Origin: a virus | Taxonomy: Duplodnaviria > Heunggongvirae > Uroviricota > Caudoviricetes | DNA: 44,611 nucleotides | Virus record (IMG/VR): IMGVR_UViG_2703718850_000006 | Coordinates: 1 to 44,611 of that record | Reading direction: 5' to 3' (one strand) | Shown here: positions 24,105 through 25,737 of the stretch, one piece after another | How the letters are laid out: each line of letters starts with the position of its first letter | How positions within the stretch are numbered: the first letter of the stretch is position 1 | Notes under the pieces: model-generated | Databases searched by the model: none | What the model saw: only the letters and a program-made list of their open reading frames with translations | What the model was told of the DNA's origin: nothing | Program-made: the position numbers and the translations under genes

Positions 24105-24326
24105 TTAAACAGGCAACAACGTGGCTGTTACAATCTCCGCCATATTCGCGTTAAGATCACATTCAACAGAAATTTCTTCATCCGTGGCATCCACTTCATA
24201 TGTCCGGGAATAACATTCCGTGCATTTACCACTGAAGATATCCTTAACCAGAACACGTCCACGCTGCAAAACCCTGAATGGAATCGTTCCGTTAAAGGGC
24301 TTTACGGTTACCAGTAATCTCTTCAT
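24105..24326 (-). CDS. hypothetical small protein (73 aa)
   Basis: ORF 24105..24449 trimmed to MKRLLVTV start after GGAGGGG. Confidence 0.35.
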   Translation of the reverse strand: MKRLLVTVKPFNGTIPFRVLQRGRVLVKDIFSGKCTECYSRTYEVDATDEEISVECDLNANMAEIVTATLLPV

Positions 24327-24487
24327 ATCCCCTCCGGATAAAAATGCCCCTTGCCGCCCGGGCAGTTGCTTGATTCGGCAAGATTTAGAATGAACAAGAT
24401 AAAATTGGTACACGCAGCAGAATTTCATGCTTTCCGGACGCCGGCGCATCCTTCATTTTCAGCAAAATATTCTGCTCTTACAGGCGA

Positions 24488-24685
24488 TCAGTTCTGCATA
24501 CACTGCCGGACACCATTGACAATTTCACAGACCTGAGAGGCAGCATCCAAAAGCTGACGCGCCCTATCCAGGCTGACGCATCCCGACAATAAAAAAGGCA
24601 CCAGTATCGCTACCAGTGCCCATTTCGCCGCCGTTCGCGGCATTCTGTGTGTCCAGTGTTTTCGCTTCATCTCACTATCCACCAA
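24488..24685 (-). CDS. small putative lipoprotein
   Basis: ORF with signal peptide and lipobox LLSGC; true start may be the MKRKHW methionine at 24670. Confidence 0.4.
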   Translation of the reverse strand: MVDSEMKRKHWTHRMPRTAAKWALVAILVPFLLSGCVSLDRARQLLDAASQVCEIVNGVRQCMQN

Positions 24686-24809
24686 TCAATCCGGATAAGC
24701 TCAATACTCGCCAGGCGGTGGAAATGAAAATGGCAACCAACATTGCTGAAAATGAAAGGCCAACAACCACACAGAGAATTCGCGCCAGTTTTATAATGCT
24801 ATCTGACAT
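24675..24809 (-). CDS. small hydrophobic peptide (44 aa)
   Basis: Internal start of ORF 24675..24902 (MSDSIIKLARILCVVVGLSF...); one transmembrane segment. Confidence 0.25.
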   Translation of the reverse strand: MSDSIIKLARILCVVVGLSFSAMLVAIFISTAWRVLSLSGLIGG

Positions 24810-24826
24810 ATTTACCCCTGCCCCAC

Positions 24827-25009
24827 TTACGATTTCACAGCAATGATCAATTTTGCCATCCCATACAGAATCGGAGACACAGCGATACCGACAGCCACCC
24901 ACTTAATGGCAAAAGCCACCGCTCTGCTGATGTCATCAGTTACAGGCGCTTTCAATTCAAGGCCGTTTTTCATAGTCAACCTAAACAGAATTCGTTTATA
25001 CTTCTCCAT
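24827..25009 (-). CDS. small membrane protein (60 aa, C-terminal TM)
   Basis: ORF with RBS AAGGGAGAA; hydrophobic C-terminus. Confidence 0.35.
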   Translation of the reverse strand: MEKYKRILFRLTMKNGLELKAPVTDDISRAVAFAIKWVAVGIAVSPILYGMAKLIIAVKS

Positions 25010-25030
25010 GTTCTCCCTTGCTTACTCAAG

Positions 25031-25075
25031 GTCAGAAACAGAAAACCCCGAACTGTTCCCGCAGCCGGGGTTTTT
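25031..25075. terminator. stem-loop with flanking T/A runs (bidirectional terminator-like)
   Basis: ccccg...cgggg with inner cccg-cagc-cggg, followed by tttttgcttttt; lies just after the 93-aa gene. Confidence 0.45.
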
Positions 25076-25080
25076 GCTTT

Positions 25081-25362
25081 TTATTTATCTGTATGGGCGC
25101 GACATCTTGCTATTTCATTCCGGGCTTCACTGTCGCCACGACAGATACAACGCGCCGTGTCACCGTTCAGTGTGATGATGTAGGCTTCATCCTCTTTTTC
25201 TACAGGAATGCACGGAATATTCCCGTCCCGGCAATACTCAATCTTCGCTGCAAGATGAGTGTTACGCGGATAGAACTCCAGGCGGTACATATCCCCCAGG
25301 ACATGCACTTCCTCAACATGACGACCGTCTTCTGTTACCGTGATTTTCTTGAGTGCGTACAT
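25081..25362 (-). CDS. hypothetical Cys-containing protein (93 aa)
   Basis: ORF with GGAGG RBS; bracketed by terminator-like hairpins. Confidence 0.45.
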   Translation of the reverse strand: MYALKKITVTEDGRHVEEVHVLGDMYRLEFYPRNTHLAAKIEYCRDGNIPCIPVEKEDEAYIITLNGDTARCICRGDSEARNEIARCRAHTDK

Positions 25363-25390
25363 ACGTACCTCCGTTCTTTCGTTTTTGAGT

Positions 25391-25415
25391 AATAAAAAAG
25401 GCCGCCGAAGCGACC
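25391..25415 (-). terminator. rho-independent terminator
   Basis: Minus-strand GGTCGC-TTCG-GCGGCC stem-loop followed by TTTTTTATT. Confidence 0.6.
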
Positions 25416-25441
25416 TTTGTCAGAATTATTCACACCTTATG

Positions 25442-25648
25442 TCAGGATGTATGGCAATCTCTGCAACACCAGTAACATCCATTCACCCTCGTGTAACCCA
25501 GATTTTTTGCGGCCTTCACTGCCGGCTCACATGAGCTAAACTCTCCAAGCTCTTTACGATTGTTTGCATCAGGAAGTCGAAAACATGTTTCTGTATGAAC
25601 CTCATGATCGTTCTGATTATCTGTAAGAGTGTGAACATAGTACTTCAT
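25442..25648 (-). CDS. hypothetical Cys-rich small protein (68 aa)
   Basis: ORF 25442..25696 trimmed to MKYYVH start after AAAGGAGAA; C-terminal CYWCCRDCH cluster. Confidence 0.45.
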   Translation of the reverse strand: MKYYVHTLTDNQNDHEVHTETCFRLPDANNRKELGEFSSCEPAVKAAKNLGYTRVNGCYWCCRDCHTS

Positions 25649-25737
25649 ACGTATTTCTCCTTTTGGTTGCGTACGCCCAGGAGAAATTAAACGCAAAATA
25701 CACTTAACTCATTGATAATGATCATTTTTAAATGCTA

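Follow-up and report, generated by a model that had tools for sequence, protein, structure and literature searches.

The DNA analyzed here is a stretch of 44,611 nucleotides (nt) from a virus of the class Caudoviricetes (IMG/VR record IMGVR_UViG_2703718850_000006, positions 1 to 44,611), which is referred to below as the window and is a complete lambdoid prophage carrying integrase, Q, lysis, cos, Nu1/TerL, and tail fibre genes. Between the endolysin gene and cos lie six small open reading frames (ORFs), named A to F in the order of their transcription, and the fifth of them, the lipoprotein gene E, is the main subject of this report. The six ORFs had been listed in an original prediction made from the letters of the DNA, and all of them were confirmed (Table 1); they lie on the minus strand and are transcribed in the same direction as the late operon. 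The 1.6-kb endolysin-to-cos interval is best explained as a mosaic of six small genes of three kinds, namely E, the pair A and B, and the group C, D, and F. We infer that E is most likely an orphan outer-membrane lysis lipoprotein that substitutes for the spanins.

Each of the six ORFs is preceded by a GGAG-like Shine-Dalgarno site, as found by sequence inspection, and each matched a PHROG family labelled 'unknown function' with E-values ranging from 1e-19 to 3e-49. The ratio of non-synonymous to synonymous polymorphism (pN/pS) among full-length homologues was 0.00 for A, 0.19 for B, 0.33 for C, 0.11 for D, 0.24 for E, and 0.05 for F, and the reference values for the endolysin and holin genes were 0.08-0.26. 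All six ORFs were conserved in related prophages and are genuine genes under purifying selection. No match to any of A-F was obtained in Pfam, NCBIfam, or PADLOC, and the Rfam scan returned a tRNA alone, every other match being far under the gathering scores. A consensus scan of positions 24100-25740 detected no minus-strand sigma-70 promoter, and the G+C content of the interval (0.40-0.52) was not clearly separated from that of the lysis genes (0.49-0.57).

The predicted signal peptide of E comprises 30 residues with a long basic n-region (KRKHWTHRMPRTAAKW) and is the best-conserved part of the protein. The lipobox LLSG/C31, which had been noticed originally as the LLSGC motif of an ORF of about 60 amino acids (aa), proved to contain a glycine (Gly30) and a cysteine (Cys31) that are invariant in the family. 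An aspartate at position +2 retains a lipoprotein in the inner membrane, and otherwise it is sorted to the outer membrane; since the +2 residue of E is Val (in the window) or Ala, sorting to the outer membrane is predicted. The mature part consists of 30 residues, contains no proline, and is predicted to be helical. It holds two cysteines, Cys48 and Cys57, that are invariant or almost invariant and that keep their distance from each other in a Lelliottia protein of 55% identity. The only hydrophobic segment of E is the signal peptide itself (residues 19-40 of the 65-aa ORF that starts at a TTG codon, corresponding to about residues 14-35 of E), and E is the sole small ORF with a lipobox on the late-gene strand of the window. 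Mature E was also considered as a strongly amphipathic or cationic membrane-active helix, and this reading was not supported by the charge and moment statistics.

A profile search with E against 1.84 billion representative sequences retrieved 22 proteins, all of which belong to the family of E itself and are restricted to Enterobacterales, and the source names of the relatives were always 'hypothetical protein' or 'lipoprotein'. No Pfam family, including Lysis_col and Lambda_Bor, was matched at E<=0.1, and NCBIfam gave no match. The single match of E to a spanin family was phrog_6073 ('Rz-like spanin'), which was weak (E=0.042) and lay mostly over the signal peptide. The DNA of E was present in 304 of 5426 complete Escherichia coli genomes, relatives are encoded in 234 stretches of the IMG/VR viral-contig collection, and homologues occur also in the inducible toxin-converting phages phiP27 (Shiga toxin Stx2e) and phiSTEC1575-Stx2k. 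In many genomes, RefSeq leaves E unannotated although it is conserved and under purifying selection. One record, PP818812.1 ('Actinobacillus phage vB_Apl-pPE4', L007), has a lysis cassette of the E. coli type; its E gene and that of the window are about 92% identical in DNA, and the assignment of this phage to the host Actinobacillus pleuropneumoniae looks doubtful.

The position of E was compared in three sets of loci, consisting of 80 viral contigs fetched via E, 80 fetched via the holin of the window type, and 80 fetched via a sister holin clade. Among the loci fetched via E, nearly all of those reaching far enough upstream showed a Phage_holin_8 gene, a Phage_holin_3_7 gene, and an endolysin gene (M15 or GH108), followed by E, and this order was independent of which packaging module comes next. 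In total, more than 200 loci have a holin-holin-endolysin cassette with E in fourth place. The gap between endolysin and E was 0-21 nt in most relatives, 21 nt being the commonest value, and the start of E overlaps the endolysin stop by 4 nt in Yersinia enterocolitica and in one metagenomic relative. In Lelliottia (L009), the GTG start of E overlaps the end of a GH108 endolysin gene, and the holin upstream is a different, unrelated one. In the window the distance is 1067 nt because A, B, C, and D are inserted between the two genes. The genes that follow E in minimal cassettes are unrelated and comprise a soluble 63-aa ORF, ParB-like genes, HNH genes, or terminases.

In the set fetched via the window-type holin, E was found in 64 of 80 loci, and about 6 of the 16 loci without E are cut contigs. 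At one of these loci (L240), the holins and endolysin of the E type are followed by Rz/Rz1 (phrog_13 and phrog_3198) in place of E. In contrast, E was found in none of the 80 loci of the sister clade. This clade is represented by Yersinia phage vB_YpM_41, which shares 80% DNA identity with the window over the endolysin region. In 76 of these loci the endolysin is followed by an overlapped i-spanin/o-spanin pair or, in three, by an i-spanin alone, and the remaining 4 show no spanin, three of them being cut contigs. The i-spanin of this clade (92 aa, with an N-terminal transmembrane (TM) segment) and its o-spanin (69 aa, with a lipobox) are both Rz-like spanins (phrog_1026 and phrog_1275). Only two loci contained E together with Rz/Rz1, and E is damaged in both: the GER2 copy has two in-frame TAG codons, and in L226 an opposite-strand gene has been inserted at the cost of the 5' end of E. 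The gene order of PhiR12_3 is R-C-D-Rz, and its DNA homology to the window ends at the start codon of E. The arrangement C-D-E-F of the window thus corresponds to C-D-Rz/Rz1-F of other lambdoid phages, and E therefore occupies the spanin slot.

A terminator-like hairpin with an 11-bp stem, a GNRA loop, and a run of six U residues lies within the coding sequence of E, over codons 17-27 of the signal peptide, in addition to the two terminators that had been predicted for the interval. Nine intact E homologues, which differ at most other synonymous sites, were compared at third codon positions, and only 1 of 10 hairpin codons was variable as against 44 of 49 codons elsewhere in E (Fisher test, p=1.4e-6). 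The Lelliottia gene retains the hairpin nucleotide for nucleotide, except that the loop GCGA is changed to GCAA. The hairpin folds in all 29 sequence variants of the collection, with energies between -11.5 and -21.5 kcal/mol, and it is retained in the GER2 pseudogene. Most of the substitutions in the stem are transitions that preserve pairing; one of them changes Leu to Pro and converts a G.U pair to G-C. The near-invariance of the stem means that true covariation is absent. These results show that the hairpin is under constraint at the nucleotide level. It may act as a terminator, and it would then probably limit full-length E mRNA to late transcription antiterminated by Q.

An inner-membrane partner of E was sought in the window and in its relatives. 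A TM scan of the window detected no ORF with the topology of an i-spanin, that is, an N-terminal TM segment followed by a periplasmic domain, and the minimal cassettes have no i-spanin gene beside E. A separated two-component spanin was assigned to phiP27 by Kongari et al. 2018 (PMC6139136), in whose set its combined periplasmic length was the shortest, with 32 residues in the i-spanin and 30 in the o-spanin, for which a helix content of 83% is given. The published o-spanin of phiP27 is the E homologue L32, which is 85% identical to E. The frame of the published i-spanin (20348-20542, corresponding to L002 3391-3585) was present in 1 of about 250 loci, namely phiP27 itself. It lies opposite an 88-aa gene, a 45%-identical homologue of which occurs in L078 without the 'i-spanin' frame. 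Because it occurs only once and its frame is not kept opposite the conserved 88-aa gene, the published i-spanin is interpreted as a shadow ORF. From these comparisons, we conclude that the E family appears to have no conserved phage-encoded inner-membrane partner.

The predicted periplasmic loop of the Phage_holin_3_7 protein was also inspected (window and loci L010-L251). At about residues 55-58 of this protein, a cysteine (YLCG) was found in 141 of 142 loci linked to E, whereas the loci with spanins have YLFG (77/78) and a cysteine in only 1/78. A counter-example to this correlation is the Salmonella locus L008, in which E accompanies a holin loop without cysteine. The loop cysteine could be a disulfide partner of E, but the correlation is confounded with clade and is taken as a lead only.

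Genes A and B differ from the other small genes in that each is followed by a terminator-like hairpin. These hairpins (z -2.1 and -4.1) bear out the intrinsic terminators predicted originally, and both are kept in diverged relatives. A homologue of A that is 54.5% identical is located after E in other prophages and carries its own, different G+C hairpin and T-tract (AAAGGCCGC-UCU-GCGGCCUUUUU), and the hairpin 3' of B is kept in B homologues with compensatory changes in the stem. The two hairpins belong to genes A and B and travel with them in diverged relatives and at other positions. The description of both products as Cys-rich held for A, in which Cys22, Cys40, Cys57, Cys60, Cys64, and His18 are invariant and His15 and His65/66 nearly so in the family alignment. 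It did not hold for B, which is conserved across Enterobacterales; the cysteines of B are incidental because they are not conserved in its family.

Relatives of A with 35-43% identity occur in phages of Staphylococcus, Streptococcus, Erysipelothrix, and Vibrio. The AlphaFold2 model of A (mean predicted local distance difference test score of 82) consists of four strands and one helix. It gave no significant fold match, and a sequence search of the Protein Data Bank was likewise without a match; the predicted model of B is a beta-meander with no informative fold match. Gene A is probably mobile cargo, encoding a small protein that binds metal. At about 25711-25725, in the gap that separates the start of A from the endolysin stop, a sequence (TTGATAATGATCATT) resembles two Fur box hexamers, agreeing by eye with the consensus at about 14 of 19 positions, and this hints that the Cys/His-rich gene A may be iron-regulated. 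RefSeq, as annotated by the Prokaryotic Genome Annotation Pipeline, leaves A unannotated in both close relatives examined (L003 5125-5501 and L004).

Taken together, A and B look like self-contained accessory cassettes of 'gene + terminator' that would have been inserted between the endolysin gene and E, so that the late transcript would read through both. Such read-through is expected, by inference from lambdoid biology, because the Q protein is encoded upstream. Like the morons of lambdoid phages (bor, lom, stx, and LT-II genes), A and B are additional genes, each with its own terminator, that separate two genes which are neighbours in relatives; they differ from morons in that no promoter of their own was detected and in that their G+C content is just slightly below that of their neighbours.

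Gene C encodes a tail-anchored protein with a basic N-terminus and a TM segment at about residues 30-58, and D, which always comes next after C, encodes a single-pass membrane protein (TM scan). The window has C between the endolysin gene and E, and lambdoid phages of the PhiR12 and other types have it between R and Rz. Homologues of F with 60-72% identity lie directly after Rz, overlapping its stop, in Stx1 and Stx2 phages and in H-19B. Thus, C, D, and F are lambdoid lysis-cassette passengers that recur on either side of the spanin slot, C and D being optional, and it is a guess that they act in lysis timing or membrane events. C and/or D were considered as the i-spanin partner of E and were rejected: they are missing from the commonest E cassettes, they have only 2-13 periplasmic residues, and they also precede canonical Rz. 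The spanin-like role that had been proposed for the small membrane and lipoprotein genes is well supported for E, by its position, its translational coupling to the endolysin, and its mutual exclusion with Rz/Rz1, and is not supported for C and D. A, B, C, D, and F stay candidates for roles in conversion or exclusion; searches with them gave no match in Pfam, NCBIfam, or PADLOC and no informative fold match.

The original comparison of the interval with the position of bor and Rz1 in lambda was apt, as some relatives carry bor, an Ais-like phosphatase gene, or LT-IIb genes in the slot. In L186 and L231 (about 6023-6951), which do not have E, bor (Pfam Lambda_Bor, 2e-30) and a DUF1398 gene are located on the opposite strand. 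In L205 and L213 (about 5262-6203), also without E, an Ais-like histidine-phosphatase gene is on the opposite strand. In L172, gene B runs straight to Nu1, and a partial SerU-LTIIb phage (L090 1565-2714) has LT-IIb enterotoxin genes in the slot and no E. The endolysin-cos interval is thus a hot spot for recombination and cargo, where the lysis gene stays in place while toxin genes, serum-resistance genes, and small genes of unknown function are exchanged around it.

Along the direction of transcription (minus strand), the late operon consists of Q, a DNA methylase gene, tRNA-Gly, two holin genes, the endolysin gene, the six small ORFs, cos, Nu1 (Pfam Phage_Nu1, 1e-83), and the large terminase gene, and the window ends with tail fibre genes on one side and the integrase gene on the other. 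The placement of the small ORFs next to cos was confirmed by alignment to phage 21, position 1 of whose cos segment corresponds to 24049 of the window, and cosN lies 56 nt beyond the stop of F. The tRNA-Gly(tcc) gene and then three terminator-like hairpins are situated just 5' of the first holin gene (26968-27491, minus strand), which recalls the pR'-tR'-tRNA layout of Stx phages. Among the tail genes there is an Ail/Lom outer-membrane protein gene (3776-4396, minus strand; Pfam 1e-53), with the same placement as lambda lom. Near the integrase gene (41418-42430, plus strand), an ORF for a 62-aa membrane protein precedes one for a 275-aa SPFH/Band_7 lipoprotein with the lipobox LVGC; the lipoprotein is probably kept in the inner membrane because it has Asp at +2, and the two may form an accessory or defence pair.

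Table 1. Positions of the genes and elements discussed, given in window coordinates (dG, folding free energy; z, z-score)
Feature	Position	Strand	Description	Match or statistic
Q antiterminator gene	31282-30899	-	Upstream of the lysis genes	Pfam, 5.5e-52
Lysis cassette proper	25738-26942	-	Two holins and endolysin	
Phage_holin_8 gene	26942-26553	-		Pfam, 4e-22
Phage_holin_3_7 gene	26575-26285	-		Pfam, 9e-21
Endolysin gene	26304-25738	-	GH108/PG_binding_3	Pfam, 5e-26/2.5e-26
Gene A	25648-25442	-	68 aa, soluble	phrog_4298, 8e-25
Hairpin after A	25391-25418	-	Terminator-like, AAAGGUCGC-UUCG-GCGGCCUUU then UUUAUU; 25418-25397 without the U-tract	dG -15, z -2.1
Gene B	25362-25081	-	93 aa, soluble, mainly beta	
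Hairpin after B	25036-25079	-	Terminator-like; A-tract, G+C stem, U-tract	dG -20.7, z -4.1
Gene C	25009-24827	-	60 aa, C-terminal TM segment	phrog_1115, 1e-40
Gene D	24809-24675	-	44 aa, one TM segment	phrog_4906, 2e-19
Gene E	24670-24488	-	60-aa prelipoprotein, lipobox LLSGC, Cys31	phrog_7528, 6e-36
Hairpin in E	24590-24621	-	Terminator-like; 24621-24596 without the U6 tract	dG -17.9, z -4.3
Gene F	24326-24105	-	73 aa, soluble, last gene before cos	phrog_2571, 4e-28
cosN	about 24038-24049	-	cosB towards Nu1	81% alignment to annotated phage 21 cos segment

In the mechanism we propose, E would be synthesized as a prelipoprotein, receive its lipid at Cys31, and reach the outer membrane, where, as the displaced fourth gene product of the lysis cassette, it would break the outer membrane after the holin and endolysin have acted, replacing Rz/Rz1. 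It appears to work without a phage inner-membrane partner, and its two invariant periplasmic cysteines probably form disulfide-linked oligomers. The breach could come about by self-association in the inner leaflet, as in the case of colicin lysis proteins and entericidin B, or alternatively E may contact the inner membrane after the wall is gone.

With o-spanins such as lambda Rz1 and T4 PseT.2, E shares the outer-membrane lipoprotein form, the distal place in the lysis cassette, a conserved periplasmic cysteine, and a position interchangeable with Rz/Rz1; it differs in having neither an i-spanin partner gene nor a significant match to any spanin family. Whereas Rz1 is proline-rich and unstructured, the mature part of E is proline-free, 30 residues long, and predicted to be helical. 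The unimolecular spanin gp11 of T1 is likewise a single gene that replaces Rz/Rz1 and begins with a lipoprotein signal. However, u-spanins have a C-terminal TM anchor in the inner membrane and a beta-rich domain that spans the periplasm, whereas E ends 30 residues after the lipidated cysteine and has no second hydrophobic segment.

Colicin lysis proteins, or bacteriocin release proteins (Lysis_col), and entericidin B resemble E as very small lipoproteins with about 27-35 mature residues that permeabilise the envelope, in the case of the colicin lysis proteins through the outer-membrane phospholipase A (OmpLA). The signal peptide of a bacteriocin release protein is important for function in its own right, and that of E is, likewise, the best-conserved part. 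The colicin lysis proteins nevertheless share no sequence similarity with E (Pfam, E<=0.1), and E occurs in a phage context and not in that of a colicin operon. To our knowledge, gp28 of phage phiKT is not a lipoprotein. This protein, the disruptin (bioRxiv 10.1101/515445), is similar to E as a small non-spanin protein that carries out outer-membrane disruption in a spanin-less phage, but it is cationic and resembles an antimicrobial peptide, whereas E is a lipoprotein with a net charge of about 0. E also differs from Bor in giving no Lambda_Bor match, and true bor (L186, 2e-30) is on the opposite strand.

Three other explanations were weighed against this proposal. It is unlikely, in our judgement, that E is a non-lysis outer-membrane lipoprotein that, in the manner of Cor, Llp, or Bor, excludes superinfecting phages, masks a receptor, or serves host fitness and is only carried along in the lysis cassette, with the whole interval being lysogenic-conversion cargo. 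Small disulfide-bearing phage lipoproteins are known exclusion factors, as exemplified by T5 Llp, and the bor (2e-30), phosphatase, and LT-IIb genes found in the slot, the cassettes that do without E, and the moron-like terminators of A and B would all fit such a role. However, E is co-oriented with the endolysin gene and often translationally coupled to it, whereas bor and the phosphatase gene lie on the opposite strand with their own signals, and E is swapped specifically with spanins and decays beside Rz/Rz1. Moreover, the hairpin inside E would block its expression by unmodified polymerase in the lysogen, and E has no sequence relation to Bor or to other known lipoprotein families. Even less can be said for the possibility that some or all of the six ORFs are chance frames in non-coding spacer by cos and the hairpins accidental. 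RefSeq omits A in the two close relatives and often omits E, and all products are shorter than 100 aa without a Pfam domain; yet the PHROG matches of all six, the pN/pS values of 0-0.33, the homologues of A in phages of Gram-positive bacteria, the invariant lipobox of E, and the terminators of A and B kept by compensatory changes in diverged copies speak against it, and it is highly improbable and already refuted because the six ORFs are conserved.

The remaining alternative, that E is an ordinary o-spanin whose partner went unrecognised, being a diverged i-spanin encoded elsewhere, one of the two holins, or a host protein, is also improbable, though it draws on several observations. In Kongari et al. 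2018 (PMC6139136), the phiP27 homologue is an o-spanin whose i-spanin is encoded separately, and E has an outer-membrane lipobox and conserved periplasmic cysteines, the latter being nearly universal in spanins according to the same study; the weak phrog_6073 match and the distribution of the holin loop cysteine point the same way. Against this, the published i-spanin frame is confined to one of about 250 loci and lies opposite a real gene, the commonest cassettes have E 21 nt after the endolysin gene and then unrelated genes, and the window has no ORF of i-spanin topology. E also accompanies a holin loop without cysteine (L008) and an unrelated holin (Lelliottia, L009), and 30 residues are far too short for half of a bridge spanning the periplasm.

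Several observations weigh against the proposal that E replaces the spanins. The part of E in lysis is deduced from sequence and gene context, and mature E, with 30 residues, is itself too short to span the periplasm. It is not cationic (net charge -1 to +2), and its helical hydrophobic moment is not significantly above that of shuffled sequences (p 0.07-0.4). We know of no established one-component lipoprotein disruptor of the outer membrane among phages. At least five apparently complete cassettes (L172, L186, L231, L205, and L213) have neither E nor a recognisable spanin; prophages therefore persist without E, and the cassettes in question are possibly in decay. Phylogeny confounds the comparison of the E clade with the spanin clade, as there are two holin clades and few recombinants. 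The conservation of the hairpin in E could reflect some nucleotide-level function other than folding. Finally, the consensus scan detected no promoter for A and B, so that they fit the classical definition of a 'moron' only in part. With these points taken into account, the overall account, in which the orphan lipoprotein E replaces the spanin, A and B are accessory cassettes, and C, D, and F are passengers, is given a probability of roughly 55%. The narrower proposal that E founds a new class of phage lysis protein, acting alone and without any inner-membrane partner in a widespread group of lambdoid prophages to which phiP27 belongs, and that a terminator in its signal-peptide codons would let only Q-modified polymerase through and so gate its production, is tentative and rather doubtful.

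[quoted passage not shown] The analysis corrects a published spanin assignment, that of the phiP27 i-spanin, and the hairpin in E seems to be a rare example of a terminator-like structure conserved within a coding sequence. E is a compact, testable candidate for another solution to outer-membrane disruption. If E works alone, the annotation of 'spanin-less' genomes would change, the finding would bear on the release of Shiga toxin 2e, and E might serve as a minimal tool for permeabilising the outer membrane.

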